Shown here: piece after piece, positions 1 to 47,829 of the stretch
Numbering within the stretch: the stretch's first letter is position 1
How the letters are laid out: each line of letters opens with the position of its first letter
Source: Escherichia coli
GTDB taxonomy: Bacteria > Pseudomonadota > Gammaproteobacteria > Enterobacterales > Enterobacteriaceae
Assembly (NCBI RefSeq): GCF_030013205.1
Contig: NZ_CP122648.1
DNA length: 64,000 nucleotides
Strand: one strand, 5' to 3'
Translations under genes and position numbers: made by a program
Notes under the pieces: model-generated
The model's database searches: none
Told to the model about the DNA's origin: nothing
Seen by the model: the letters and a program-made list of their open reading frames with translations, nothing else

Positions 1-273
1 AAAGATCTTCGGGTTGATAAGCGTGAAACCAGTAACCTTTTTCTTCTTCGGGAGTTTCTGGTCCGTCGGCGCGGAAAGTGGTTACGGGAGGGATTTGTAT
101 ATACCCATAATGACAACGTGCAAACTCAGATATATTTTTCCTGATTTGTTGATAGGTGGCATTAAAAGCATGAAGAATCGCTTCGCCAGGTTTTTTGGGG
201 GTGATGATTTCACATTGTGATTTCTGAACAGCAGTAAGAGATTTACGCTCAAGTGTTTGCCGTAGATGTTCTG
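1..273 (-). CDS. Partial gene of unknown function, truncated by the window edge and by IS1
   Basis: Hand translation of the minus strand shows one frame open across 1-273 (peptide ...PEHLRQTLERKSLTAVQKSQCEIITPKKPGEAILHAFNATYQQIRKNISEF...); the + strand 68-aa ORF here looks spurious. The reading frame runs into the first base of IS1. Confidence 0.3.
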
Positions 274-328
274 GGTGATGCTGCCAACTTACTGATTTAG
301 TGTATGATGGTGTTTTTGAGGTGCTCCA

Positions 329-604
329 GTGGCTTCTGTTTCTATCAGCTGTCCCTCCTGTTCAGCTACTGACGGGGTGGTGCGTAACGGCAAAAGCACC
401 GCCGGACATCAGCGCTATCTCTGCTCTCACTGCCGTAAAACATGGCAACTACAGTTCACTTACGCCGCCTCTCAGCCCGGTACGCACCAGAAAATCATTG
501 ATATGGCCATGAATGGCGTCGGATGTCGCGCCAGTGCACGCATTATTGGCGTTGGCCTCAACACGATTTTCCGCCACTTAAAAAACTCAGGCCGCAGTCG
601 GTAA
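329..604 (+). CDS. insA: IS1 InsA (transposition repressor / N-terminal part of InsAB' transposase)
   Basis: 91-aa [43 protein letters not shown]... (zinc finger plus HTH); A6C slippery motif near 580-586. Confidence 0.9.
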
Positions 605-1026
605 CCTCGCGCATACAACCGGGCAGTGATGTGATTGTCTGCGCTGAAATGGACGAACAGTGGGGCTACGTCGGTGCTAAATCACGTCAGCGCTGGCTGT
701 TTTACGCGTATGACAGGATGCGGAGGACGGTTGTGGCGCACGTCTTCGGTGAACGCACTCTGGCCACACTGGAGCGTCTTCTGAGCCTGCTGTCGGCCTT
801 TGAGGTCGTGGTATGGATGACGGATGGCTGGCCGCTGTATGAATCACGCCTGAAGGGAAAGCTGCACGTTATCAGCAAGCGTTATACTCAGCGCATTGAG
901 CGGCATAACCTGAATCTGAGACAACATCTGGCAAGGCTGGGACGGAAGTCACTGTCGTTCTCAAAATCGGTGGAGCTGCATGACAAGGTCATCGGGCATT
1001 ATCTGAACATAAAACACTATCAGTAA
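523..1026 (+). CDS. insB: IS1 InsB reading frame (expressed as the InsAB' fusion by -1 frameshift)
   Basis: 167-aa ORF overlapping the insA 3' end in the -1 frame; sequence ...[22 protein letters not shown]... Confidence 0.85.
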
Positions 1027-1036
1027 GTTGGAGTCA

Positions 1037-1648
1037 TTACCCAATTTTTGAACTGTCTTTAAGATGAATATTACGGATAAGAAAACGAATGTAGTTATCG
1101 TTTTTAGATTCCCAGTGCGTATATTTACCAACTATGCTATTATTTTCTGACTGCCAGTGATCGAATGCTGTCTGTCCACTTATATTTTTATGATTAATGT
1201 CGCAACCAGCCTCAATTAGTGCATCGTACACATATCCTTCAAATGGAATGAAAAGAAAGGAATTGCCATAGCTATCTTTGGTATGGATATCTAGTCCTGC
1301 TTTGATAAGATATTTTACTAACCCTGGTGAAACATCAATATGTTGAATCGCAAGGGTGCCTGACTTATTCCGGTGGTTAACATTAATACCATTGCTGACA
1401 AGAAGTTCCACTGTTTCAACATTTTGAGCATAGAATAATGCATTATTACCGTCATTATCCAAGTGGTGAATGTCAATGTCAGCGTCAATCATTGCCTGTA
1501 TAGCTTCAGGTACATTACAGGTAAAAAGAGCAGTTTGACCTTTACTATTGCACATATTTATATCCATGCCAGCCTTAAGGCAACGAAGGACACCATTTTT
1601 AGACTTTACACGGAATAGGTTATTTTTATTATTTTCTCTTGATATCAT
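1037..1648 (-). CDS. Ankyrin-repeat protein; its stop codon lies inside the IS1 terminal repeat, so the C-terminus may be truncated
   Basis: 203-aa ORF with repeated ankyrin-like units (GQTALFTC..., DGNNALFYAQ..., SGTLAIQH..., YGNSFLF..., SGQTAFDHW); stop codon at 1037-1039 is within the last 5 bp of IS1; AT-rich DNA. Confidence 0.7.
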   Translation of the reverse strand: MISRENNKNNLFRVKSKNGVLRCLKAGMDINMCNSKGQTALFTCNVPEAIQAMIDADIDIHHLDNDGNNALFYAQNVETVELLVSNGINVNHRNKSGTLAIQHIDVSPGLVKYLIKAGLDIHTKDSYGNSFLFIPFEGYVYDALIEAGCDINHKNISGQTAFDHWQSENNSIVGKYTHWESKNDNYIRFLIRNIHLKDSSKIG

Positions 1649-2167
1649 TGTTTATCTCCTTTTTTGTTGTTTTCAAGATATTAATGACACCAGATTTTAC
1701 GGTATTCAAATTTATTTTTGTTTTATTAGGGGGTATCTGATTTGGTTTGCTTAAGGTTATTCTTAACTTAATGGAACATAGGGACGTTAAGGTTATCCTA
1801 TGTGATGTGGATTAACCATTTTCACAAGAATATTTATCCATATTGGAACTAATCTGTATAAAGGAGATAATTAGAGGCTCAGATATTAATACTATAGAGA
1901 GTAATGCTATAGGATATGGAAAAGATCATGTAATATAATGGTGGTTATTAATGTTCATCTTAATTTTGGAAATTAAATGAGTAGTGTTTTTTATGAGGTT
2001 TTTTGCTGTTGATAATTCTTATTAAAATTTGAAGAGCATCCTTTAAGTTATTCGGCTTGAGGATGCTCATTTAAAATTTAAGCAGCGTAGTCTTTTTCAA
2101 CAGCCAGGAAGGGGTGATGCTGCCAACTTACTGATTTAGTGTATGATGGTGTTTTTGAGGTGCTCCA

Positions 2168-2569
2168 GTGGCTTCTGTTTATATCAGCTGTCCCTCCTGT
2201 TCAGCTACTGACGGGGTGGTGCGTAACGGTAAAAGTACTGCCGGACATCAGCGCTATCTCTGCTCTCACTGCCGTAAAACATGGCAACTGCAGTTCACTT
2301 ACACCGCTTCTCAACCCGGTACGCACCAGAAAATCATTGATATGGCCATGAATGGCGTTGGCCTCAACACGATTTTACGTCACTTAAAAAACTCAGGCCG
2401 CAGTCGGCAACCTCGCGCATACAGCCGGGCAGTGACATCATCGTCTGCGCGGAAATGGACGAACAGTGGGGCTACGTCGGGGCTAAATCGCGGCAGCGCT
2501 GGCTGTTTTACGCGTATGACAGGCTCTGGAAGACGGTTGTTGCGCACGTATTCGGTGAACGCACTATAG
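2168..2569 (+). CDS. insA: IS1 InsA variant (11-aa deletion, read-through)
   Basis: [19 protein letters not shown]...[16 protein letters not shown] lacks [11 protein letters not shown] and continues past the usual stop (TAA changed to CAA). Confidence 0.7.
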
Positions 2570-2832
2570 CGACGCTGGAGCGTCTTATGAGCCTGCTGTC
2601 ACCCTTTGACGTGGTGATATGGATGACGGATGGCTGGCCGCTGTATGAATCCCGCCTGAAGGGAAAGCTGCATGTAATCAGCAAGCGATATACGCAGCGA
2701 ATTGAGCGGCATAACCTGAATCTGAGGCAGCATCTGGCACGGCTGGGACGGAAGTCGCTGTCGTTCTCAAAATCGGTGGAGCTGCATGACAAAGTAATCG
2801 GGCATTATCTGAACATAAAACACTATCAATAA
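2455..2832 (+). CDS. insB: IS1 InsB frame of the variant copy
   Basis: 125-aa [30 protein letters not shown]..., near-identical to copy 1 InsB. Confidence 0.7.
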
Positions 2833-2877
2833 GTTGGGACCATTACCAAATAGTTTATATGCTAAAAATTTAGGGAA

Positions 2878-5800
2878 TCATTTTCCTAATTCTCCAGCTA
2901 AAAGTTCAGCCTGCTTCAAAACAGTCTCTGTGGCGAGCAATGACATATCAGGCGGATAACCATATTTTTTGAGCAGACGTTTTACCACCACGCGAATTTT
3001 TGCTCTTGCTGCTTCTTTCACTGTCCAGTCAAGACTGACATTGTTGCGGATAGCCTCCGTAAGTACGACTGCCAGTTCTCGTAGTTTTTCCTTTTCCATT
3101 AACTCGCGAGCACTGTCGTTATCTGCAACAGCAGAATAGAAGGCATATTCATAAGCGCTGAGGTTTAACTGGCTGGCAAGGCTGTCAGATTCCTGGATAG
3201 TCTTGGCAAGCTTGATTAGCTCATCAATTACCTCCGCTGCGGTCAGTACCTTGTTCTGGTAGCCATTGATTGCAGAGGTCAGCATATCAATCAGTTTTTT
3301 GCCTTGGGTGATACTTTGATTCGAGCGAACCTTGATCTCGTCAGAAAGCAGTTTTTTAAGCGTTTCCAAAGCAATATTTCTGTGTTGGTAATCCTTCATT
3401 TCCTGAAGGAATTCTTCAGAAAGAACGGAAATATCAGGTTTTTGTATCCCAGCAGCGTCAAAAATATCAACAACTTTATCGGTAACCAGAGCCTGATCGA
3501 TAGTCTGTTTTACCCGAACTTCGAGACTGTCATTGTGTTCTTCTTCTGATCCGTCTGAGTTTTCAGTAAATTTATTCAGTCTGGCTTTTACTGCCTGGAA
3601 GAATGCTACTTCGGGTGCCGCTTCCATTGCTTTATCGTGCGGTGTCGCCAATGCAAATGCCTGCGATAAGGCTGCAACCGCAGCGAGGAAACGCATTTTA
3701 CCTTTACCGTTATCCAGCCCTAAAATATGGTTTTCTGATTCAAGAATAATTGTCAGGCGTTGTGAGGTAGTTGCGGCAAAGTAAGCTTTGTAATCGTATC
3801 CATGCATCATGCCTTCCAGGATTTCCAGCTTTTCCTGCATGAGCGTTACGGCTTCTTCCTGAACCTCAGCAGGATCTCCACGTCCACCTGCATCAGAGTA
3901 AAAGGAGAGGGCTTCTTTTAAATCAGAGGCAATGCCCAGATAGTCAACAACCAGACCGCCTATCTTATCTTTATACACACGGTTCACACGGGCAATTGCC
4001 TGCATAAGGTTGTGGCCTTTCATTGGTTTGTCGATATACAGCGTATGCATGCTGGGAGCGTCGAAGCCGGTTAACCACATATCACGCACTATCACCAGTT
4101 TCAGCTTGTCGTCGTCATCCTTCATACGGTTAGCCAGAACCTGACGTTCTTTTTTTGTGGTGTGGTGTTTGGCAATTTCTGGCCCGTCAGCAGCAGAAGA
4201 GGTCATGACGACTTTTATTATACCGTCATTTAAATCATCGCTGTGCCATTCAGGTTTTAAGGCTATGATTTCTTTATATAGTTCAGCAGCAATACGGCGG
4301 GACATGGTAACAATCATGCCCTTACCATGATCGGCATTGGATTTTAAGCGCTGCTCAAAGTGCAGAACCATATCCGCCGCAATCGCTTTAATACGTTTTG
4401 AACTGCCAATCAAACCTTCGATTCTGGCCCATTTAGAACGTTCTTTTTGCGTGAGCGTCAGTTCGTCCTCGTTAAACTCATCATCAAAGTCTTCAATAAG
4501 CTGACGACCTTCATCACTGATGGCAATTTTGGCAAGACGGCTTTCATAAAAGATACGAACTGTTGCACCATCTTCAACGGCCTGCGAGATATCGTAGATA
4601 TCAACATAGTTACCAAAAACAGCAGGCGTGTTGACGTCCGTTTTTTCTATGGGGGTTCCGGTAAAGCCGAGATAGGTCGCATTAGGTAAGGCATCACGCA
4701 TATATTTGGCAAAGCCGTAAACGGTGCGTTTACCTGTTACGTTGCCTTCGCTGTCTTTCACGTCAACTTCTTTGGCGCTGAAACCGTACTGGGAACGGTG
4801 TGCTTCATCAGCGATAACGACAATATTGGTTCTGTCTGACAACAACTCATAGATATTGCTGCCATCATCAGGCTGGAATTTTTGAATAGTAGTAAACACC
4901 ACACCGCCAGAGGCGACACGCAAATATTCTTTGAGTTCTTCCCGGTTGTTGGCCTGTTTTGGTGTCTGACGAAGTAGCTGGGTCGCGGAAGAGAACGTAC
5001 CGAATAGCTGATCATCTAAGTCGTTACGGTCAGTAATCACAACAACTGTCGGATTATCCAGCGCCAGCACAATTTTCCCGGTATAAAACACCATCGAAAG
5101 CGATTTACCGGAACCCTGAGTATGCCAGACTACGCCCGCTTTGCGATCTCCGGTTTTTTGCGCATTAACAAGATCTTTACTGTTACGTCCCTGCTGGCGC
5201 AGTGCCACTTCGGCAGAGGGGGAGTCCGCATTCACCGCTGAGGCACGAATAGTGGAAAGAACTGCTGCATTGACCGCGTAGTACTGGTGATAAGCCGCCA
5301 TTTTTTAACAGTACGGATACTGATAATCCCTTTGCTGTCTTCATGTTTGCTGGCCTCAAACACGATAAAGTGGCGGATTATATCCAGCAGCGTTACAGGA
5401 TTAAGCAACCCCTGTAATAAAACTTCAAGCTGTGGTTGGGTACTGGTGGCTTGCGTTTTACCGTTAGCAGTTTTCCACGTCATATAACGACTGAAATCGG
5501 CAGAAACCGTCCCCGCTTTGGCTTCCAGCCCGTCAGATATCACATTAAAAGCATTGTAGTTAAACAGACCGGGGATTTGGTTCTGATAGGTTTTAATCTG
5601 ATTATAGGCACCTGTTACCGTTGCATTTTCGTCAGCGGCATTTTTAAGTTCGATAACGACTAATGGCAGGCCATTGATGAATAAAATAAGATCAGGTCGG
5701 CGGGTATGGTTGCCTTCTTTGATGGTGAGCTGATTAATGACCAGAAATGCATTATTAGTGGGATCGTTAAAGTCGATCAGGCTGGCCAGTTCTCCTTGTG

Positions 5801-6116
5801 TATTACCATCCTTGCTGACTTCGATATTGATTCCTTCGGTCAAAAGGCGATGAAAGGTTAGATTGTTTGCCATTAGGTCAGGTGAGCTGATCTGCATCAC
5901 CTGTTTTAGAGCTTCTTCACACTTCTGCTCACTAAGGTGCGGGTTAATTCGTTGCAATGCTGTACGCACTTTATCTTCAAGGATAACCTGCTGATAGCTA
6001 CGTAACGGATTGATTCCACTGGGTTCAATGTCCGGGCCGTAAACATACTCATAGCCCAGCCCTTGCAGGTGCTCAATTGCCATTACTTCAATATCGGATT
6101 CGGTCATCTTTGCCAT
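2878..6116 (-). pseudogene. hsdR: Type I restriction enzyme R subunit (HsdR), split by a -1 frameshift in a homopolymer tract
   Basis: Two overlapping ORFs: 5232-6116 (N-terminal 294 aa) and 2878-5301 (807 aa with Walker A TQGSGKS and DEAD-like VIADEAHR). The junction is a 6-nt T run at 5301-5306 (A6 on the coding strand); adding one A would join the frames as ...[15 protein letters not shown]... Confidence 0.85.
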
Positions 6117-6174: not shown

Positions 6175-7368
6175 TTATGCTACTGATGCGATTGCTTCTT
6201 CCGCATACTGAACCCGTACTTCGCCGCTCATCAGTTTGGGAAGGAGAGTGTCGCGCAGAGATTCTATGTTTTTAATTTGTGAGTTGTTAATACTTATTTT
6301 TTTCCAGAAGAAATCAATCTGTGTAGTGAATTCTTTCACCATACACTCCGGGGGGAGTTTGAATTCTGGGCGTTGTAATCCGTCAGCCGACAGCTGATTT
6401 ACAGTTGAACCGTTAGTTGCAGCAACAACTTGCTCATGCATATCTTTGGAGCAAAGTAAATAGTACAGAAAAGCATTGGTTAAGTAACTATCGTCATTGA
6501 TGCTGATTTTAAATAAATGATGCGTATATATGGATAATTCGCTTTCTGTTTTTGGAATTATAGCAGGATACCCTATGAGTCGATATTCATGGCCCTGTTC
6601 TGTATTGGCTACAATGATATCCCCAGGCTTTATAATATGCCTTTCTTTAAAATCACCATTGTAGTATTTTATACCTGCACTCTTATAACCACCGCCCTCA
6701 AGTACTGAGTTCAAACTAAAAAGTGGAATGCCGTTATCTGACGTGGTAAGGCCGGCTCCCTTGTAGCTTAATCCCTTAGCTACTGTAATATGACAATCAA
6801 GAGTCGTTATTTCCCAATCCGCATGCGTCTCTTCAATAAACCACTGTCTAAATAGGGTTTCTGCCATGGATTCCAGAGTTTTATTCTGGCGATGAAGCAG
6901 GTCTATTTTGTCTTTAAGAGAGGACAAAATAGAGGCGATGGCTTTTTGTTCAGATTCATCAATTGGTAAGTAAAGAGGAATCAAATTTAGCGATGCTTTA
7001 TTTAATTTTGGTTGAGCAGCACCTGTTAAATAAGGAGATAGATCAAGTTGTGAAAAATATTGGATTATCAATGCCGTTAAATGGGGCTTTTTAGCTTTAA
7101 GGACATGAGCGTGATTATTAACCCAAAATTTTCCAGTAGCTTCAAATGCTATAGGTGTTTTTCTGGACTTTAAGTTTTCTCCATCTTCAGAAATAAGGAT
7201 GTAGCTGCCATCAAAAATATAATTGTCGATATAATCGACAATTCCTGACGCTCCATAATATGGAAAATTTCCTTTCTTATGGGCTCGTTCCATAGCACTC
7301 AAAGGAATTCTTTGTGCGTTGCAAAAATCTGCTAATTCAGTTATACAAAAATTTCTCCACCTACTCAT
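6175..7368 (-). CDS. hsdS: Type I R-M specificity subunit (HsdS)
   Basis: 397-aa ORF between hsdM and hsdR; its start overlaps the hsdM stop (ATGA); two-target-recognition-domain architecture inferred from length and position. Confidence 0.8.
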
Positions 7369-9393: not shown

Positions 9394-10508
9394 CCGTGTC
9401 CGTTTTAGCAGGGACAACTCCAGTATTCAAAAAAGCTTTCTTAGTGCATATGCATGAGGTGAATAGATGTACAGGCTATGACAAACCATAGTTGTAATTT
9501 TTAATGTTTAAAATTCTCCGTTACAGTAGGACATTCCTTGTACATTAAATTCCATCTAAGGTTGAATTTTTAATTTAATAAGGTCGCAATCTAAAATGAT
9601 GTGTATGGGGTTATTTGTAAGATGATTTTTTATTTTTGATAGTGGTGATTAAGGGAGCGGGTAATGTTTGTCTATTCAAAAATATAGAGATTCAAGGTTG
9701 GTAGCAGTTTGGCTTCTTTTATAACCGAAGGGCAGAAAAGCAAGGGGAACTCGAAGAAGCAAGCGCAGCGGCTTCGCAGAGTTAGCCCTTGCTTCTCTTA
9801 TAATTGGCATTATTCATTCAAGAACAATAGGATCTTCGCTTGTACAAGCGAAGCTATAATAAAAACAATCAATTAATAATTTTAAAAGTATTAAACAAGA
9901 ACCTATTGACATTCATAAAATACAAGTTATTTATAATGTATGCCATAAATAAAAAGTTTTATGTCATATGTATCCTGCACTATGTGCAGTTAATGTACCA
10001 CTTGTCCCATAGATGGGAATATTGGAAAGGTTACTTTGTTTTGAAGTAGCCTTTCGTCCTTCAATATTAACGATTACTTATTGCTATTACCAAGTCCAGT
10101 CGAATCGAAGAACATCTTTTATCTGAAACGACTCCTAATACCCGGTTAAAGCCACAATATCTCTCGCATACGTAGACCAAAGAAAAATTATGATATTAAC
10201 TATGTGATTTTTTTTAGTGTTAAGTTGAATAATTAAATACTGGAGAGTTTTCTGTGCACTACCAATTGCTGGTTCATCTGTTCTGCCGCTGATGTTTCTG
10301 ACGAATCTCCCGGTGACACAGAACTGTCCCTCTCTACCAGCCTTTATTCGACTCAATGTCCGGCTGCTGATACGCAGTTATCCCTTCGTATCAATGACTG
10401 ACACTTAAACGTAATGCTTTGGTTGCTGGCGTATCTGACAGCTTCTTCGGCGTGAAGGTCGTTGTGTAAGTATACTTCTTGGTTTATTTAGGCTATATAA
10501 AACCATGA

Positions 10509-11405
10509 CTATGACTTGCTGTTTTCAGTAAGAGTCTTATCATCCAAAGAATTTATTCTAGAAATTCTTTTTAACTCATTAAGATAATCAACCTCGTTTT
10601 CTAAGAACCAATGAAGAACTTTAGAATTGCCAAGTAATTTATTAATATATGACTGGATTATAACGAATTTCAACATATCTGAACCATACTCGGTTTGAAG
10701 CTTTTTCGTTTCTTCCGAAGTTGTTGCCATTTCTTGTTCCAGACGAAGTATGGTTTTTTTTATGTCCTTTTTATAGGGAGTGTTTTTCCCTTTATTTACT
10801 ATCATCGATGCCGGTGTTGCATCCAAGATGCTCATTGCAAATTTTTTACTATAATTATCAAAATTAATCATTGTACCGACTGCTTCAATTTGGCGAATTG
10901 GCTTCATTTTCCTCAAAACGTCAAATGTAGCCTTAGGTATAGGTTTATCAGAAAGTTTCGCAATTACACTTGGATCTATGCCGTTCATCACATTCGCTTT
11001 ATCTTTTATGGCATCAACAGATATGCCCAAAGCAGCACTAAGTTTTTCAATTGATACTTTTGCCAGAGACTTAATTATCATTCTATGTTCTTCAACTACA
11101 TTTATATGATTCACTTGTTTGTTAGGAGTGAAAGCATCATCTATGCTCGAAAGTATACATGGAGCTTTTTCTATACCTAAGTCTTTTAAAGCCTCAACCC
11201 TTAAATGGCCATCAAGTATCTTAGTGACATCTTTATCTTTGTCATAGAATACTATTATTGGTTCAATAATACCTAAGCTTTCGATAGAGGTAACTATTTG
11301 ATGATATTTATGGCTTCGCTTTACGTTTTCTAATAATTCCTTAGATGGAATTAACTTATTAGTTTCCAGGTAAATAAAATTATCGCCAAAACGTATCTGA
11401 ATCAT
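10509..11405 (-). CDS. ParB/Srx-family protein (second of two tandem paralogues)
   Basis: 298-aa ORF; N-terminal ParB-like motif ...KILDGHLRVEALKDLGIEKAPCIL...; K/N/I-rich; start overlaps the upstream gene stop. Confidence 0.6.
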   Translation of the reverse strand: MIQIRFGDNFIYLETNKLIPSKELLENVKRSHKYHQIVTSIESLGIIEPIIVFYDKDKDVTKILDGHLRVEALKDLGIEKAPCILSSIDDAFTPNKQVNHINVVEEHRMIIKSLAKVSIEKLSAALGISVDAIKDKANVMNGIDPSVIAKLSDKPIPKATFDVLRKMKPIRQIEAVGTMINFDNYSKKFAMSILDATPASMIVNKGKNTPYKKDIKKTILRLEQEMATTSEETKKLQTEYGSDMLKFVIIQSYINKLLGNSKVLHWFLENEVDYLNELKRISRINSLDDKTLTENSKS

Positions 11406-12298
11406 TTTAATACCTCTTTGTTTACTGGGGTTAATATCTGAGATGGTAGTTCTGAAAGATTCTCTTGTTCAAGTATATGTTGAAAGCTTTTATTTATCAT
11501 TATGATGTTAAAAATCTCATTTACTATTAGTAGGTTGGTTTTTATGAATTTTGAGTTGTTATAAACAGATTTATGTTCAGCGATACTATTTTCATAAAGC
11601 TCAATCAACTCCTCTGCAGTCATCCTTTTTGATGGTTTGTGATAATAAAATCCGGCTGCTTTTGCACCTTTATTCCCAACTGTTCTTTGATTTAGAATGT
11701 GTTTTATCTTTATAATGTCCCGACTTTTTATTAATTTTTTATCATATGCTTCGGTAAGAATATCTTGTGCTTCCTCAGTTTCACATCTTGCAAATTGCAC
11801 TGCGAGATACAGAGGCAAATTACCCCGTTCGACTGCTGAGAGAAGTTTATGCTCTCCCTTATCAAGTAGCATATTAATACTGCTCACCCAGTTCGATGAA
11901 TATCCAGTAATCTCACTTATTTCGGAGTCTGAAAGTCCTCTGATTTTCATGTCTTTAATCACCTGTAATAACTCATTAGAACGTGGTCTTCTCCTTGCAA
12001 TGTTTTCAACTAAACTCATAACGTAAGCATCTTCTTCTGATACATCTCTTATAATTGCTGGAATAATAGTTTCACCTAATGCAACGAGAGCCTCTATTCT
12101 CCCTTGACCACAAATTAAAGCATATTTGAAATCGCCTTCATCAATAGCTCTTACGCTTATTGGCTTGCTTAATCCTCTTTTTTTTATGCTTTCCTTTATT
12201 TCTTCATGCACTACCTTATTTCTTGTTCGTGGGTTAAGAAATTTTATTTTTGCAATCTCAATTTGAATTATTGGGAATTCATTTTTTTCAGGCAGCAT
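11402..12298 (-). CDS. ParB/Srx-family protein (first of two tandem paralogues)
   Basis: 298-aa ORF; ...KPISVRAIDEGDFKYALICGQGRIEALVALGETIIPAIIRDV...LVENIARR... resembles ParB box regions followed by an HTH-like segment; no ParA partner adjacent. Confidence 0.6.
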   Translation of the reverse strand: MLPEKNEFPIIQIEIAKIKFLNPRTRNKVVHEEIKESIKKRGLSKPISVRAIDEGDFKYALICGQGRIEALVALGETIIPAIIRDVSEEDAYVMSLVENIARRRPRSNELLQVIKDMKIRGLSDSEISEITGYSSNWVSSINMLLDKGEHKLLSAVERGNLPLYLAVQFARCETEEAQDILTEAYDKKLIKSRDIIKIKHILNQRTVGNKGAKAAGFYYHKPSKRMTAEELIELYENSIAEHKSVYNNSKFIKTNLLIVNEIFNIIMINKSFQHILEQENLSELPSQILTPVNKEVLK

Positions 12299-13844
12299 AT
12301 AGTTCCCTCACTTTCATGCGAGTAATAATTTGTAGAAGTTTATCAAGATTATCAAATCTATAGAGATCTAATCGAATGTTGTTTGTTTCCGTCATGCACA
12401 TTTTATTATATTCGTTTTCAATCTTTGGTATGATATAAAAATCAAGAGGTGAAATATTTTGTGAATTCATTCGTATAACAATTGTTATGTCTGCTTTCTG
12501 TGAGTTATCAAACCGGACTTTCCATCTAAGTTTACCTGATTTCATATGTATGCATTTAGTAACAAGGACGGAAATTAAAAACTCATCATTGATGTAAAGC
12601 ATTGGGGCATATTTATACTCGTCTATATGACAGTTACTTTTTAAAATTTCACCCTTAAAATCCTCAATTATCTCTGAGTAAAATGATCTTAGTGCTTCAT
12701 TTATTTTGAGATAGCTGTAATCATGTTCTGGCTTATAACCAATCAAAGTATATGCTCTTAAAAGACCACCAAATCGGGTTCTATAAACAGAAGATGAAGG
12801 GCCTGTATCATCTTCATCAATGATAAAGCCTGATAGTTTTCCATTAGATTCTAATTTTTGTTTTAGTTTTTCTAATAGATCTTCATTAGTCAAATGAATG
12901 GATCGGAGCTGAATTATTTCTTGAGCTTTATTGTATTTTTTCTTTGAAATAATAGGTTTATATGCCTTGTCACATCTAACCCATTCATGTTTGGGGTTTT
13001 TTACAAGCCTACTTTTTAATTTAGATGAGGTTTTGTTATATATGTTGTTTCCAATATATTTTTCATTTGTCAAAATTTGATGTATTTTTGCACGAGTCCA
13101 TAATGTTCCATTTTCTGCAGGTATGTTCTGTTCATTTAATCTCTCAGCAATAATGAATTCTGGGACGTTATTATCTATAAAGAGATCATATATTCTATTT
13201 ACAATTTTTATTTCATTTTTTGGTCCCGGAATTAATATTACCCTATCTGTTTGAATACTCTTTCTTTTGCGGAAACTCAATATTTCTTTAGCTATGCCAT
13301 TTTCGTCTACTAAAAGACGTCTCAGCCCATAACCAGCCATACCGCCTTGATGATAACCAAGCTTTATTAAATTTACTTGCCCTATAAATACCTTTTCAGA
13401 TAGATTCCTGCTGTGATATGCAGCACTAGATCTTTTTATATTCAGTATAACAGAGGACTCTAAAGGGAAATCTTTAGTGGGTATAGGTTCGGAACAATAT
13501 ATAAGATCTACACCATTTCTCTCAAATAGAAAGGAATAATATGCCGCTTCATCACTATTTTGAAAACGACCAAAACGGCTCACATCATAAAATAATACAG
13601 CCTGTATATCTATTTTCTTTTGTTCTACATCGCTAAGTAACTGCTGCAAAGAATGCCTGCCTACGATACTGACTCCGCTCTTACCTGCATCATCGTAGGT
13701 ATAAGCGATTTCCATATTGTTCTTTTCAGCATAATCTTTGATATATTCGGACTGATTATGTAAAGAATATTGCTGATGGTCGGTAGACATCCTCAAGTAC
13801 TGCGCGACCCTAACTCTATGATTTTTGTCATTTTCGCTAGCCAT
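12288..13844 (-). CDS. Large serine recombinase (resolvase/invertase catalytic domain plus C-terminal recombinase domain)
   Basis: 518-aa ORF; N-terminus VAQYLRMSTDHQQYSLHNQ... carries the catalytic-serine motif typical of serine recombinases; overlaps the downstream ParB-like gene by 11 nt. Confidence 0.7.
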   Translation of the reverse strand: MASENDKNHRVRVAQYLRMSTDHQQYSLHNQSEYIKDYAEKNNMEIAYTYDDAGKSGVSIVGRHSLQQLLSDVEQKKIDIQAVLFYDVSRFGRFQNSDEAAYYSFLFERNGVDLIYCSEPIPTKDFPLESSVILNIKRSSAAYHSRNLSEKVFIGQVNLIKLGYHQGGMAGYGLRRLLVDENGIAKEILSFRKRKSIQTDRVILIPGPKNEIKIVNRIYDLFIDNNVPEFIIAERLNEQNIPAENGTLWTRAKIHQILTNEKYIGNNIYNKTSSKLKSRLVKNPKHEWVRCDKAYKPIISKKKYNKAQEIIQLRSIHLTNEDLLEKLKQKLESNGKLSGFIIDEDDTGPSSSVYRTRFGGLLRAYTLIGYKPEHDYSYLKINEALRSFYSEIIEDFKGEILKSNCHIDEYKYAPMLYINDEFLISVLVTKCIHMKSGKLRWKVRFDNSQKADITIVIRMNSQNISPLDFYIIPKIENEYNKMCMTETNNIRLDLYRFDNLDKLLQIITRMKVRELYAA

Positions 13845-14014
13845 GCACGAAACCTCATGGATGATTCAATACAATGTAGTGGATAAAATTGATCAAATTT
13901 CAACCGAATTCAACTGTTTTATCATTGATTAGAGCGAATTTGGTAGATCTTCGAGGTGTATGATAATCGAGAAGAGATGTGAATTATTTAGCTGATATGA
14001 CCGACAGCTTTCGT

Positions 14015-14064
14015 TATGTGGACTCAATGTCCCCATTTGTAAATGGCTATGCTTAGTCCACATA
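14015..14064. repeat. Inverted repeat TATGTGGACT ... AGTCCACATA (10-bp arms, about 30-bp spacer) upstream of the serine recombinase gene
   Basis: Seen directly in the sequence (approximate coordinates); lies in the 282-bp gap between the serine recombinase and the integrase. Confidence 0.5.
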
Positions 14065-14126
14065 GGTTAATGGTGTGATTATTAATTCTTTAACTAAATC
14101 AAGATAGTTAATCCATCATGGGAGAG

Positions 14127-15356
14127 TTATGCGGCCATAACTTTGCATTTTTGAGACGAAACATAGTCACTCCACCATTGCATGAGAACCACCCGTTCAG
14201 TGAGATACTCTGCACGATTGTAGGCTGCAATTATTTCATCTTTCTTCGAGTGGGCAAGGGCGGCTTCTAAGACATCAGTCCTAAACTTGCCAGACTCCTC
14301 AGCAGCCGTTCTAGCAATGGATCGCATACCGTGAGCTACAAGCTCACCTCCGAAACCCATACGGATTATGGCCGCATTAGCTGTTTGTTCATGCATGTGA
14401 TTGAGTGGAGCTTTGATACTGGGGAACACCCACTCTCTATGCCCGCTGATGACTTTCATTAAATCCAAAACTCGCAAAGCTTCTTTGCTCAGTGGAACTT
14501 TGTGAGGCTTCTTCATTTTCATAAACTCCGCCGGGATGTTCCACATGCCAGTTTCAATATCAATATCTGACCATCTTGTGCGAACAGCTTCACCTGGGCG
14601 AACCCATGTGAGAAGTTGCCACTCAATCAGTAGCCTTGTTTCCAAACGGATAGAAGCATTGTTTAGAGCAACCAAGAAGCGAGGGAGTTCGGAAGGGGGT
14701 AATGCTGGCATATTCTGTTTTTTTGGCTTGCTGAACCGTTGCCCCAGGTTGTCTGCCGGGTTGAATTCTATGAGTTCTTCTGTTGCTGCATAGCGGAAAA
14801 TTTCATTCAGGCGGGATATGATGCGGCGAAGTGTTTCAAGGACACCTCGTTTTTCTATGGGTTCTAAATGCTGTTTAAGCATTTTAGGGCGAATCTCCTT
14901 AATTGGGGTATCACCCAATGTGGAAAAGATATTTCTCTCTAGGCTTCGCCAGATGTCGTTAGCATGATCTTGGGAGATGCCTGACGTTTTGACTTTCTCA
15001 TCAAGCCACTTCTTGGCTACTGCTTGAAATGTATGTTCCGTGGCATCTTTCAGTGCATTGGCTTTTTGGTTGTTATGAACTTGGGGGTCTATACCATTTG
15101 TAAGCAACGACAAGTATTCATCACGTAAAGCTCGTGCCTTCGCAAGTGTAAGGTGAGGATAGGTTCCTAAGCTCACCTTAGTTCGCTTTTTGGTCACAGG
15201 CACTGCATATCTGAAATACCAATTTTTCTTCCCTCCCTTCGCCAGGGGAGCGATTCGCAACAGCAAACCATCGCCGTCAAAAAGGTTAACCTCTTTTTCG
15301 GCAGGTTTGGTGCTTTTGATTTCAGTGTCAGTGAGCTTCTTAGCGATTTTGGCCAT
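14127..15356 (-). CDS. intA: P4-type tyrosine integrase (IntA-like) at the 3' end of ssrA
   Basis: ORF 14127-15437 (GTG start in the track); probable start at 15356 (MAKIAKKLTDTEIK...), matching the N-terminus of CP4-57 IntA as recalled; conserved ...HGMRSIARTAA... region. Confidence 0.85.
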   Translation of the reverse strand: MAKIAKKLTDTEIKSTKPAEKEVNLFDGDGLLLRIAPLAKGGKKNWYFRYAVPVTKKRTKVSLGTYPHLTLAKARALRDEYLSLLTNGIDPQVHNNQKANALKDATEHTFQAVAKKWLDEKVKTSGISQDHANDIWRSLERNIFSTLGDTPIKEIRPKMLKQHLEPIEKRGVLETLRRIISRLNEIFRYAATEELIEFNPADNLGQRFSKPKKQNMPALPPSELPRFLVALNNASIRLETRLLIEWQLLTWVRPGEAVRTRWSDIDIETGMWNIPAEFMKMKKPHKVPLSKEALRVLDLMKVISGHREWVFPSIKAPLNHMHEQTANAAIIRMGFGGELVAHGMRSIARTAAEESGKFRTDVLEAALAHSKKDEIIAAYNRAEYLTERVVLMQWWSDYVSSQKCKVMAA

Positions 15357-15522
15357 GTTTGGGACCCTCGATTTTAGGACCCATCTTCGTGGGTCCCATT
15401 CAGGGTGCCATAACTCGTAGTTCTCAGCAATTCTCACTAGACTACAATAGACGTAAAAAAGCCCGCAGAGCTTGTGCTGTGCGGGCTTAGTAGACTTTAC
15501 TGAACTTCAGTACATCAATATT

Positions 15523-15885
15523 TGGTGGAGCTGGCGGGAGTTGAACCCGCGTCCGAAATTCCTACGTCCTCGGTACTACATGCTTAGTCAGTCTTTACAT
15601 TCGCTTGCCAGCTGCGGACGGACACGCCACTAACAAACTAGCCTGATTAAGTTTTAACGCTTCAACCCCAGGCAGGGCTTCCACGCGATCTCTTTTGGGT
15701 TTGACCTCTCTTGATCCCCGTCCTAAGAGCGGAGGCTAGGGAGAGAGGGCTCTAAGCAGGTTATTAAGCTGCTAAAGCGTAGTTTTCGTCGTTTGCGACT
15801 ATTTTTTGCGGCTTTTTACGAGGCCAACCGCCCCTCGGCATGCACCTTGGGTTTCGCAAATCCCGTCGAATCCAGAATCAGCCCC
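15523..15885 (-). ncRNA. ssrA: tmRNA (SsrA), 363 nt
   Basis: Reverse complement begins GGGGCTGATTCTGGATTCGACGGG and ends ...GGGTTCAACTCCCGCCAGCTCCACCA; the tag-template region is present. Confidence 0.95.
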
Positions 15886-44958: not shown

Positions 44959-46738
44959 CTGACAGGATCCATGTTGATTTGCGCTTGTGCTTATAGTTCA
45001 GGGGTTCATTACTTGCGGCATGAGCTATGGCAAAGAAGATGTCAGCGTGCCCGGTTTCTTCGCTACGTTCGGCGGTGAAAGTGACTTTATTGCCGCTGTT
45101 GGTGGATTCCTGACGAATGGCCAGGAACGATGCCGGAATATCCGTGGCTTCTTCATCCCACTCAATACGGTTGGCGTAAATCAGATCCAGCATCTTCATC
45201 ACCAGGCGGTTTTTGGATTCCACGCTGTAATGAATGGCCACTGTTTCACGGCGGGCAAATCCCTGAACCAGCTCAAAGACACCGTAGCCAAGACCGGTGA
45301 CGTCAATGCCGATAAATGTCATGTTATAGCGCGCCTTAATGCTGCGGATACGCTCTGCCATAAACTGGAATGACATGCTGCGCCAGTGGTGTTTTTCCAG
45401 CACGCGGAATCGTTCTGCCGCAACCAGCGGCGGTGCCAGCACAACAAATGTGGCGTTATCGCCGGAGCGCGCAGGGTCAAAGCCGCCCCACACTTCACGG
45501 TTACCAAATGGCATGGGCTCTTCCGGGTGAAAATCCTCCCACGTACTGACATCAACACCACAACGCACAAGATCATCGAATTTAAAGACGCTCTCTTTGT
45601 CATCCACAAACACACACATAAACAGCATATTGAACGCTGTTTCGTTGTATCGCTCGCGCAGCTCGTTGATGTCAGCAAGGTTAAAGCCGCCGGCAATGGC
45701 ATCTTCCAGCGTAACCACATAGCGCCACTGACCATCCGGACATTCACGCCCACCATCGCGCAGCTCATCAAAGGACGGAAACTCAACCCCTTTTCGTTTC
45801 GGATCGCCTTTGCGCCATTCATCGCCAGACCAGAACGGGTAACCCTGGTGTGTTTTGGATGACGGCGTGGAGAAATAGGTAATGCGCCAGTGTTTATGGG
45901 TGGCCATCCCTGATGCCACTTCATTGAGACGGCGAAAACCGGGGATCCACAGGTATTCATCAATATACAGGTGGCCGCTGTTTGACTGCGCTGTGTTACT
46001 GTTGGTCGCCAGAAAATACAGTTCAGCCAGATTACTTAACTTAACCGGATTGCCTTTAATGGGAATGCCAAACTCTGTTTGTGCAATTTTTACAATATAA
46101 GTACGGAACACTTCGGCCTGACGTTTTGATGCCGATAAAAATATCTGTGTGTCGCCGGTTAATACTGCATCTTCAAATGCCTCAAACGCGAAGTAATACG
46201 TCGCCCCAATCTGGCGGGATTTAAGCAGGTTGCGTACACGGCGGAATTTGTTTTCACGCAGATGCAACTGATAAGCAAACAACTTTTTCGTAAACGGCTC
46301 AAAACTTTCAGCAGTCAGTCCGGAAACGTCATTAGTTTTGCGGGGACGCTCTTTCTTACCTGCACCTTTTTCTCCGCGTTCTTCTTTTCCATAACGGCCA
46401 GGCTGGGGGATGTCCACTCCCATTCGCGCAATCTCAGCCATTCGTTCTGTATGCTTGTTTCTGACCGACATCAGTTTGACGTGATGACCAATCAGGCGAT
46501 CAAGCTCATCGTGTTCTTCCTGGGTCTTATGGTCACGTTCCGCCAGTACAGCGAGACGCCGGGCGATAACATCCTCCACGCCTTCCGTATTGAGCTGCGT
46601 GTACCACTCAAACTTTGTCGCCCAGTAATAAACAATTCGCGGACTGTTCAGTCCGAGTTTCTTTTGTATTTCTTTTGGTGTGTGCCTTTTCAGATAGAGT
46701 GATTTTGCTGCGGCAATCACCTCATCAGAATACGCCAT
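44951..46738 (-). CDS. P: Terminase large (ATPase) subunit (P2 gpP-like)
   Basis: 595-aa ORF with Walker-like KSRQIGATYYFAFEA and a nuclease domain. Confidence 0.85.
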   Translation of the reverse strand: MAYSDEVIAAAKSLYLKRHTPKEIQKKLGLNSPRIVYYWATKFEWYTQLNTEGVEDVIARRLAVLAERDHKTQEEHDELDRLIGHHVKLMSVRNKHTERMAEIARMGVDIPQPGRYGKEERGEKGAGKKERPRKTNDVSGLTAESFEPFTKKLFAYQLHLRENKFRRVRNLLKSRQIGATYYFAFEAFEDAVLTGDTQIFLSASKRQAEVFRTYIVKIAQTEFGIPIKGNPVKLSNLAELYFLATNSNTAQSNSGHLYIDEYLWIPGFRRLNEVASGMATHKHWRITYFSTPSSKTHQGYPFWSGDEWRKGDPKRKGVEFPSFDELRDGGRECPDGQWRYVVTLEDAIAGGFNLADINELRERYNETAFNMLFMCVFVDDKESVFKFDDLVRCGVDVSTWEDFHPEEPMPFGNREVWGGFDPARSGDNATFVVLAPPLVAAERFRVLEKHHWRSMSFQFMAERIRSIKARYNMTFIGIDVTGLGYGVFELVQGFARRETVAIHYSVESKNRLVMKMLDLIYANRIEWDEEATDIPASFLAIRQESTNSGNKVTFTAERSEETGHADIFFAIAHAASNEPLNYKHKRKSTWILSDE

Positions 46739-46822
46739 AAATAAACCTCACCTGCTGATGCAATTTTAATTTATGCATTTTCAGCAAAGGCTTTTTTAAA
46801 AACGAATATCGCTTTTCGGTAT

Positions 46823-46850
46823 TTTTCGGATATATGCGCATATCCGAAAG
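46823..46850. promoter_or_regulatory. Dyad-symmetry element in the divergent P/O late promoter region (candidate Ogr operator)
   Basis: TTTCGGATATATGCGCATATCCGAAA between the divergent terminase and scaffold genes (approximate coordinates). Confidence 0.35.
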
Positions 46851-46932
46851 TACCGGAAATTAATCAGATGACGACGTTTTCATTTCTCCGTTAAATAACG
46901 CCAGTTTAATTTTTATCAGCGGATTAATTCAG

Positions 46933-47829
46933 ATGACGAAGCAGAAAACAGACTGGGTTGTGGTTGCCACATCAGGCCCCACCATCGACGGTCGGGAAAT
47001 TGATCCGAAGTGGCTGACGGATGCCGCCGAGGTTTACAACCCGGACGAGCGAGCCGCCATGCTCTGGCCATATCACGCCGATTCCGGATGGCGTGCCTTC
47101 ACCAATAACTACGGCATTGTTGATGCCCTGAAAGTCGAAAAATTTGGTGAAAAGGTGCAGCTTAAAGCACGCCTGATCCCAAATCGCTTCCTGATTGAAG
47201 CCAATAAGGCCGGGCAGAAACTTTTTACCTCCATTGAAGTGCGGGAAAACTATCTGGGCACGGGCAAATTCTTTGTGTCCGGTATCGCCGTGACGGATAC
47301 CCCAGCCAGCATTAACACTACACGCCTGCAGTTTTCCATGGGGGAAGCCATCCATATGGGCAACGCAGAGGCGCTGAATTTTACGCTGCAGCCTGATGAT
47401 GAGCAGGCCAAGCGCAACTTCTTCTCCCGCTTCTTCTCATCTGACAATCACCAACAGGGAATTTACCAAGCCATGAACGAAGAACAGTTCAGCCAGTTAA
47501 TGGGTGCCATTAATAAAACCAGTGAACGCCTGGACGAGCTGGAAAAAAACGTCGCGCAGTTCAGCGCGAAGGATGCCCCGAAAGATACCGGTGATAACAA
47601 GCCGGAAGGCAGCACCGGCGATCAGGGGCAGGACAACGCAGAACAGAACAACAAGGACGACAAAACCTTCACGCTGACCACCGAGCAGGGCGAAAAGCTG
47701 TTCTCCACAGTGAACGCCATCGCGGAGAAGGTTACCAGTATGGAAACCGCATTTGCTGAACTCAGCAAGGACGCCACGAAGCTGCCGGGCAACAATCCGG
47801 CCGGTGGCGAAACTTTTAACCTGGTGTAA
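46933..47829 (+). CDS. O: Capsid scaffold protein (P2 gpO-like)
   Basis: 298-aa ORF; position and similarity to gpO. Confidence 0.8.
   Translation: MTKQKTDWVVVATSGPTIDGREIDPKWLTDAAEVYNPDERAAMLWPYHADSGWRAFTNNYGIVDALKVEKFGEKVQLKARLIPNRFLIEANKAGQKLFTSIEVRENYLGTGKFFVSGIAVTDTPASINTTRLQFSMGEAIHMGNAEALNFTLQPDDEQAKRNFFSRFFSSDNHQQGIYQAMNEEQFSQLMGAINKTSERLDELEKNVAQFSAKDAPKDTGDNKPEGSTGDQGQDNAEQNNKDDKTFTLTTEQGEKLFSTVNAIAEKVTSMETAFAELSKDATKLPGNNPAGGETFNLV

Follow-up and report, generated by a model that had tools for sequence, protein, structure and literature searches.

Several described systems bear comparison with the locus presented here. Adjacent deletion is a classical behaviour of the insertion sequence IS1, and the ankyrin repeats of bacterial proteins are often directed at the host. 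Two genes that form the sole cargo of an integrase islet represent an arrangement typical of defence cargo. Kiwa (KwaA/KwaB), for its part, is a two-gene system without an ankyrin component. In the F and IncI plasmids, the leading-region genes are transcribed towards oriT (PMC11541004). The locus itself lies in a stretch of Escherichia coli DNA of 64,000 nucleotides (contig NZ_CP122648.1), which was analysed as a whole and is termed the window below. It comprises a truncated ankyrin-repeat gene, ank1-delta, flanked by two IS1 copies. Comparison with related genomes makes it very likely that the locus represents what is left of the ank1 gene, recent in origin and probably non-functional, after the decay of a mobile island. 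The relevant features of the window are the following:

1..273, minus strand: ygaQ-like pseudogene fragment of the alpha-amylase family; the chromosomal flank adjoining glaH-lhgO-gabDTP, which runs up to the left edge of IS1 copy 1
274..1041, plus strand: IS1 copy 1, complete at 768 bp, with insA/insB' and terminal inverted repeats (sequence, alignment of the copies and PGAP)
1037..1648, minus strand: truncated ankyrin-repeat gene ank1-delta (ORF list, Pfam, 328-aa alleles and AF2)
1042/1043..1648, minus strand: native codons 1-202 of ank1-delta, followed by a Gly codon and TAA which span the IS1 junction (comparison with the 328-aa alleles)
1649..2077, no strand assigned: native intergenic region between kwaB and ank1, AT-rich (30% GC), collinear with positions 9608..10036 of the related locus L002 at 98% identity
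1656..1660, minus strand: Shine-Dalgarno sequence AGGAG, 7 nt 5' of the ank1-delta ATG (direct sequence reading)
about 2031..2068: kwaB terminator hairpin, within the intergenic region 1649..2077 (DNA fold)
2078..2112, minus strand: tail of kwaB (Kiwa), its last 11 codons and stop; all that is left of kwaA-kwaB
2113..2847, plus strand: IS1 copy 2, 735 bp, with an in-frame 33-bp deletion in insA, at Kiwa's place (alignment of the copies)
2878..6116, minus strand: hsdR, type I restriction subunit, split into ORFs 2878..5301 and 5232..6116
15523..15885: ssrA (tmRNA), the integration site of the island

The ank1-delta ORF is listed by the ORF program with 612 nt and 203 aa. The first-pass annotation had described it as an AT-rich ankyrin-repeat gene situated between two IS1 copies, and these points hold. 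Ankyrin membership was judged by whether tandem repeats of ~33 residues reach the Pfam gathering scores, and the 203-aa protein passes those of all four Ank models: Ank_4 (E 1.3e-17, 63.9 bits, cut-off 22.7), Ank_2 (52.5 bits, cut-off 27.3), Ank_5 (40.4 bits, cut-off 27) and Ank (25.8 bits, cut-off 21.1). The ORF has a GC content of 35.5%, and the 464 bp 5' of it one of 29.7%, as compared with 48.9% in the whole window and 51.4% in the core genes farther to the right. Given an open frame of 612 nt in DNA of 35% GC, together with these Pfam scores, ank1-delta is no chance ORF. Direct reading of the sequence also places its stop codon where the first-pass annotation had put it, i.e., within the terminal 5 bp of IS1 copy 1 (TAA, the reverse complement of 1037..1039), such that IS1 contributes the stop and two nucleotides of the final (Gly) codon. 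Because the IS1 inverted repeat provides an in-frame TAA only 5 nt in, annotation pipelines call a clean CDS. Accordingly, PGAP lists ank1-delta as an ordinary CDS (WP_242378982.1) and not as a pseudogene, and the clean 203-aa "ankyrin repeat domain-containing protein" of RefSeq is in fact an IS1-truncated fragment.

The intact ank1 gene comprises 987 nt and encodes 328 aa in E. coli strains 81, E423, CEA601S and ETEC6333; it has this length in Salmonella, Citrobacter and Kluyvera as well. The window protein is identical to residues 1-202 of the 328-aa alleles, with one Gly added at the end, at the point where the alleles go on with VFTNITFKSIELL... No natural full-length homologue ends at residue 202, and the earlier suspicion that the native C-terminus had been removed was therefore correct. 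Comparison with these alleles and the AF2 model show that ank1-delta encodes the full ankyrin domain and a linker helix, without the 126-aa C-terminal region; it ends two residues into the first strand of a C-terminal family domain that is present in the ancestral allele. The window ORF is a truncated derivative of a family that combines ankyrin repeats with this C-terminal domain, and no complete member of it.

The 1,071-bp segment between the IS1 copies is present in about 310 of 5,426 complete E. coli genomes, in every case on the chromosome. About 80 of the roughly 310 carriers have kept the complete 3' part of ank1 and the downstream gene of 146 aa (hyp146), and in WCHEC020031 and about 220 further E. 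coli genomes, an IS2/IS3 junction cuts ank1 down to 289 aa. The exact arrangement of the window is found in only six of the 5,426 genomes, which match it at 100% over positions 1..2900; all six are porcine ETEC isolates from a single study.

The origin of the truncation is seen by comparison with ETEC6333, another porcine ETEC strain (locus L006), which shares the left junction of the window between the ygaQ fragment and IS1, but in which ank1 is intact. ETEC6333 carries an additional IS3 inside the ygaQ fragment, and the right end of its IS1 abuts sequence 3' of hyp146. The window from position 1042 onward aligns to L006 from position 6633 onward, and the 1,255 bp at L006 5378..6632 are missing from the window. 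This missing segment begins exactly at the right end of IS1 and spans hyp146 and the last 381 nt of ank1. Since ETEC6333 combines the common left junction with an intact gene, the window is the product of a 1,255-bp deletion adjacent to IS1, and the loss bears the classical signature of such events. The truncation is recent, as the retained DNA differs between the window and ETEC6333 by 1 nt in 2,159.

Both IS1 copies are on the plus strand, and both carry the terminal repeats GGTGATGCTGCCAACTTA.../...CATTACC, the latter marking the right end of copy 1 at position 1041. They are 91-97% identical across the aligned blocks and are therefore different isoforms. PGAP annotates IS1 transposases in the two copies, that of copy 1 as an IS1 family transposase with a programmed frameshift. 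Comparison of the flanks within the window revealed no 8-9-bp target-site duplication at copy 1, at copy 2 or around the pair; the flanks of copy 1, for example, are dissimilar (...gatgttctg vs ccaattttt). Such duplications are expected to be missing if a deletion made each of the IS1 junctions. Copy 2 is present at the identical site in about 297 E. coli genomes, and its arrival seems to have been an event separate from, and older than, the truncation of ank1. To the left of copy 1, the 1..273 fragment exhibits 96% identity to a pseudogene of WCHEC020031 annotated as "alpha amylase C-terminal domain", and its counterpart in ETEC1748 is annotated as an alpha-amylase family glycosyl hydrolase without its N-terminus.

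IS1 copy 2 stands in for positions 10073..11633 of L002, i.e., kwaA and nearly all of kwaB. Intact kwaA and kwaB are thus absent from the window, and both genes are whole in its relatives. The remaining tail at 2078..2112 translates as (P)FLAVEKDYAA followed by the stop codon, vs ...SPFLAVEKDSAA and stop in the intact KwaB of strain 81. Because the copy 2 junction is common to about 297 E. coli genomes, the loss of Kiwa is old and widespread in the lineage of the window. The adjacent intergenic region (1649..2077) presumably holds the ank1 promoter; a promoter and terminator scan of window positions 1000..2200 gave nothing above chance, and Rfam had no match in the ank1/kwaB intergenic region. 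On the other side of copy 2, hsdR is split at a run of six T residues near 5301-5307. The run has seven T residues in ETEC1748 and WCHEC020031, in which hsdR is an intact CDS of 3,240 nt, and the frameshift may be genuine, in which case this strain has lost type I restriction, or it may be a sequencing error in the homopolymer. With ank1 cut, Kiwa erased by IS1 copy 2 and hsdR maybe frameshifted, the "defence island" of the window is largely decayed.

Comparison of extant genomes suggests an order for these IS1 events. The ancestral island had the order hsdM-hsdS-hsdR-kwaA-kwaB-ank1(328 aa)-hyp146-ank2(314 aa)-nikA-like-relaxase and onward. In the lineage of the window, an IS1 isoform with the 33-bp deletion would have taken the place of kwaAB. 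A second IS1 would have linked the ygaQ flank to the sequence 3' of hyp146, which is the state of ETEC6333, and the 1,255-bp adjacent deletion, proceeding from the right end of this second IS1, would then have taken hyp146 and 381 nt of ank1. The ank1 frame now extends 5 nt into the IS1 inverted repeat and ends at the TAA. Seen in this manner, the locus is a case of ordinary IS-driven erosion of a mobile island. Two points speak against a dead remnant: a stand-alone ankyrin domain could retain target binding and some activity, and PGAP leaves ank1-delta unflagged as a pseudogene.

The island to which ank1 belongs is mobilizable; it extends from the ygaQ-like pseudogene (1..273) to ssrA, and integrase, recombinase and ParB genes are located at its ssrA end. 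In the near-identical strain ETEC1748, the annotation of the region that corresponds to about 11000..15400 of the window includes a degraded integrase-core fragment and two ParB-family genes (one of them frameshifted), together with a large serine-type "recombinase family protein" and the ssrA integrase; this content fits a generally eroded island. The same annotation shows, at positions assigned to the window by correspondence, dgcN with an internal stop (about 27900..29100) and a frameshifted kgtP (about 45800..47100).

In the intact relatives, the gene order is hsdM-hsdS-hsdR-kwaA-kwaB-ank1-hyp146-ank2-nikA-like-relaxase(MobA/VirD2)-...-AlpA-DUF6387. A tblastn survey that covered E. coli, Salmonella, Citrobacter youngae, Kluyvera cryocrescens and two Superficieibacter genomes placed hyp146-ank2 directly 5' of the nikA-like and relaxase genes, and co-oriented with them, in every relaxase-bearing locus. 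Most of these loci also contain ank1, and a third paralogue (P0052-like) often follows DUF6387. The remaining content varies: locus L020 has neither restriction-modification (R-M) nor Kiwa genes, in L022 and L023 only the R-M genes are found, and in L016 Kiwa is placed elsewhere. Because R-M and Kiwa vary between loci in this way, the ankyrin genes are considered conserved backbone, and R-M and Kiwa variable cargo. In L016-L018 (10001..13100), the far end of the island backbone carries the P0052 paralogue (27% identity, 328 aa, ending in GGRL) in convergent orientation to kwaB-kwaA, which constitutes a second, independent adjacency of ankyrin and Kiwa genes.

The 146-aa hyp146 (L002 7825..8265) always lies between ank1 and ank2, ending 16 nt before the latter. 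It has no family match and no PADLOC match, was found only in Enterobacteriaceae and shows no relationship to ank1; it is an orphan family of its own. The gap of 177 bp 5' of the nikA-like gene (L002 6688..6864; also in L016 and L019) contains a conserved TTGACTTATT...CTGT block. About 40 nt 5' of this block there is an inverted repeat, the sequence of which differs from element to element (e.g., GAGCAGATT/AATCTGCTC), and we regard the gap as a candidate oriT plus promoter.

A reduced islet is widespread in Salmonella, wherein ssrA is followed by an integrase, ank412 and ank304, with no other genes. Its position beside ssrA/tmRNA was confirmed, and its integrase is 86% identical to that of the window. 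The integrase-ank412-ank304 islet also occurs in Klebsiella aerogenes, and the ank412-ank304 pair in Rahnella and Superficieibacter. Across genera, the islet with its two family members (412 aa and 291-304 aa; L007-L013 and L026-L028) shows 76-88% identity. As two members are kept in Salmonella and Klebsiella islets that have no relaxase, the proteins persist even where the transfer module is missing.

The protein family is confined to Enterobacterales, with 26 true relatives among 5.8 billion clusters. It comprises five subfamilies with 27-45% identity between them: ank1 (328 aa), ank2 (314-316 aa), the P0052 type (328 aa), a 412-aa type and a 291-306-aa type. All five share the same architecture, in which about five (up to eight) ankyrin repeats are followed by a conserved region of about 110-125 aa. 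This C-terminal domain aligns across the five subfamilies, with invariant and near-invariant positions, and is marked by the motif KDSS-x-[IV]-F ... C ... TD-[IL]-S ... IK-[WF]-[LF]-I. In four of the five subfamilies, a basic tail of low predicted confidence leads up to a terminal [KRG][KRG]RL; the 291-306-aa subfamily has no such tail. In the AF2 prediction for full-length ank1, paired helices extend from residue 17 to 166 (block-mean pLDDT mostly 78-96), and the C-terminal domain starts at a strand formed by residues 202-207 (pLDDT 85-92). In this region, a beta-alpha-beta-alpha-beta unit and one degenerate ankyrin repeat are predicted, together with a long helix and the basic tail ending in K-K-R-L.

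The first-pass annotation had proposed that homologues be searched for additional C-terminal effector domains, and the conserved 126-aa region is what emerged; no enzymatic or membrane effector domain was detected. An exhaustive profile search with the C-terminal domain against 1.84 billion representatives gave 27 matches, all of which are family members, fragments thereof, or large ankyrin proteins that align only at positions 69-109, and it yielded no new fusion partner. Since large ankyrin proteins match just at positions 69-109, these positions are the degenerate ankyrin repeat. The domain has no sequence or fold relatives that we could find outside the family. The ratio dN/dS between genera is 0.11-0.20, both in residues 1-202 and in residues 203-328, and the lost tail of ank1 is hence functionally constrained. 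Searches of plasmids and phages gave generic ankyrin matches only: no member is encoded by a phage, and the sole "plasmid" hit is a linear contig of 3.6 kb. What the comparison reveals is thus a small family, restricted to Enterobacterales and under purifying selection, which bears an orphan C-terminal domain and resides in the island backbone beside the relaxase genes.

The truncated product, if made, would be an ankyrin solenoid (about five repeats and the linker helix) without the conserved C-terminal region. The constraint on that region equals that on the ankyrin part, and the native function has most likely gone with it. From its domain architecture and gene neighbourhood, the intact protein is most likely a two-part adaptor that serves the island and not host housekeeping. 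Binding of a protein target would fall to the ankyrin face, and a second activity (e.g., docking, oligomerisation with paralogues, or export) to the common C-terminal domain and tail. An element usually has two or three paralogues, often together with the orphan 146-aa partner, and the tail reads ...K-[KR]-R-L. It is conceivable, as a tentative proposal, that the intact family represents an unrecognised module of the ssrA-integrating islands of Enterobacterales, with a new mechanism of defence, counter-defence or establishment. In such a module, the ankyrin face may capture a protein of phage, plasmid or host origin; the C-terminal domain and tail may serve, for example, in oligomerisation, in export via a helper type IV system, or in protease targeting; these assignments are as tentative as the module itself. 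If the proposal is true, the window contains a naturally disabled allele that could be used as a negative control. Natural truncations at residues 202 and about 276 exist as controls, and the family is cheap to test.

More specific readings of the intact genes can be weighed against the same evidence. One of the two leading ones holds that ank1, ank2 and ank3 are establishment or counter-defence factors of a mobilizable island, the window copy being a dead remnant. The genes would lie on that side of oriT which enters the recipient first, and their products might be exported by the type IV secretion system of a helper plasmid by virtue of the basic tail, with its [KRG][KRG]RL ending in four of the five subfamilies. 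The constant position of hyp146-ank2 (with or without ank1) directly 5' of the co-oriented nikA-like/relaxase operon argues for it, as do the promoter block and the element-specific inverted repeat in the 177-bp gap, where an oriT is expected, and an orientation like that of leading-region genes transcribed towards oriT. However, both the oriT and the orientation of its nick site are putative. The single-stranded DNA folds 5' of ank1 and hyp146 are unexceptional (z -1.69 and -1.29, respectively, vs shuffles), the main hairpins there are the terminators of the upstream genes according to the DNA folds, and no Frpo-like single-stranded promoter signal stands out in these folds. Moreover, no family member is found on plasmids, the family persists in ssrA islets without a relaxase, the 291-306-aa subfamily has no basic tail, and the paper on leading-region anti-defence genes makes no mention of ankyrin proteins. 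On balance, we view an establishment role as possible and doubtful. Somewhat harder to maintain is the reading in which the intact proteins make up a separate anti-phage module, or else an accessory factor or regulator for Kiwa, and detect a phage protein through their repeats; in that case, the window copy would be a defence gene that has been disabled. The first-pass annotation had raised a defence or anti-defence role from the neighbouring R-M genes. The genes do adjoin a type I R-M system, are AT-rich and patchily distributed, and lie in an integrase-bearing ssrA island; ank1 is immediately downstream of kwaB, the 27%-identical paralogue is convergent to kwaB-kwaA in another arrangement, and two family members are the sole cargo of integrase islets in Salmonella, Klebsiella, Rahnella and Superficieibacter. 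Yet the ankyrin proteins have no enzymatic or membrane effector domain, and their PADLOC matches are weak and restricted to generic ankyrin repeats: the best match in PADLOC-DB v2, to PDC-M72A (39.8 bits), covers only residues 19-100 of the ankyrin part, and the matches to MzaA, "Ankyrin" and BrxB have E values of 1e-4 to 0.02. In addition, ank1 occurs without Kiwa in L020, L022 and L023, it is set apart from kwaB by the terminator hairpin and 430 bp, and the majority of E. coli carriers have a truncated ank1. A literature search disclosed no link between ankyrin proteins and Kiwa, no ankyrin proteins in leading regions and no entry for the RefSeq accession numbers, and ankyrin proteins go unmentioned in two recent papers on defence discovery. 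The suggested defence or anti-defence role is consequently not sustained, given that the PADLOC matches are generic, that no phage encodes a member, and that the genes are backbone beside the relaxase, with R-M and Kiwa as variable cargo; we consider it unlikely.

Effectors aimed at a eukaryotic host, like the ankyrin proteins of Legionella, Coxiella and Wolbachia, are a highly improbable identity for the family. Carriers of the genes are gut Enterobacterales, including porcine ETEC, and the proteins weakly match the Dot/Icm AnkH and AnkY models of NCBIfam. These matches, however, score 28-42 bits against equivalog cut-offs of 600 and involve the repeats only; the genes are linked to neither a host-directed type IV system nor a dedicated secretion system, and no secretion features are evident at the N-terminus of the proteins. 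The genes reside in the transfer backbone of an island that commensals and environmental genera carry. As for the gene being "trapped" between two IS1 copies, in the words of the first-pass annotation, it is indeed flanked by them, and their direct orientation would suit a composite transposon that mobilises the ankyrin gene. This part of the idea must be abandoned as next to impossible: neither the pair nor either copy has a target-site duplication, the copies are different isoforms (one with the insA deletion), 310 genomes carry the inner segment in collinearity with the ancestral island, always at one chromosomal site and never on plasmids, and deletion accounts for each IS1 junction, each copy having caused one. 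The composite transposon was rejected on the absence of target-site duplications and the single locus, and no IS1-ank-IS1 copy was found elsewhere.

In comparison with known systems, the intact family resembles the leading-region genes (ArdA, PsiB, SSB; PMC11541004) in that the ankyrin genes lie beside a presumed oriT, 5' of and co-oriented with the relaxase operon. They differ in having no homology to any of the leading-region families and no evident fold like a single-stranded DNA promoter, in being absent from plasmids, and in that their oriT is presumed. Kiwa adjoins ank1 in the intact islands and adjoins a paralogue in the second arrangement; as opposed to a component of that two-gene system, ank1 is a separate transcription unit that is also found without it. 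The basic, disordered C-terminal tail of ank1, together with its ankyrin repeats, recalls AnkH/LegA3 and AnkY/LegA9 of Legionella, whereas the domain architecture is different, no Dot/Icm system is present here, and the scores of 28-42 bits stand against the cut-off of 600. The N-terminal 200 aa of ank1 are like other proteins of the Pfam Ank clan, being far over the cut-offs and forming stacked helix pairs in the AF2 prediction. The truncation, finally, conforms in each respect to IS1 adjacent deletion, and there is nothing unusual in the case of the window: one end of IS1 is exact, the neighbouring DNA is gone up to a new junction, no target-site duplication accompanies it, and the state before the deletion is preserved in a relative, ETEC6333.
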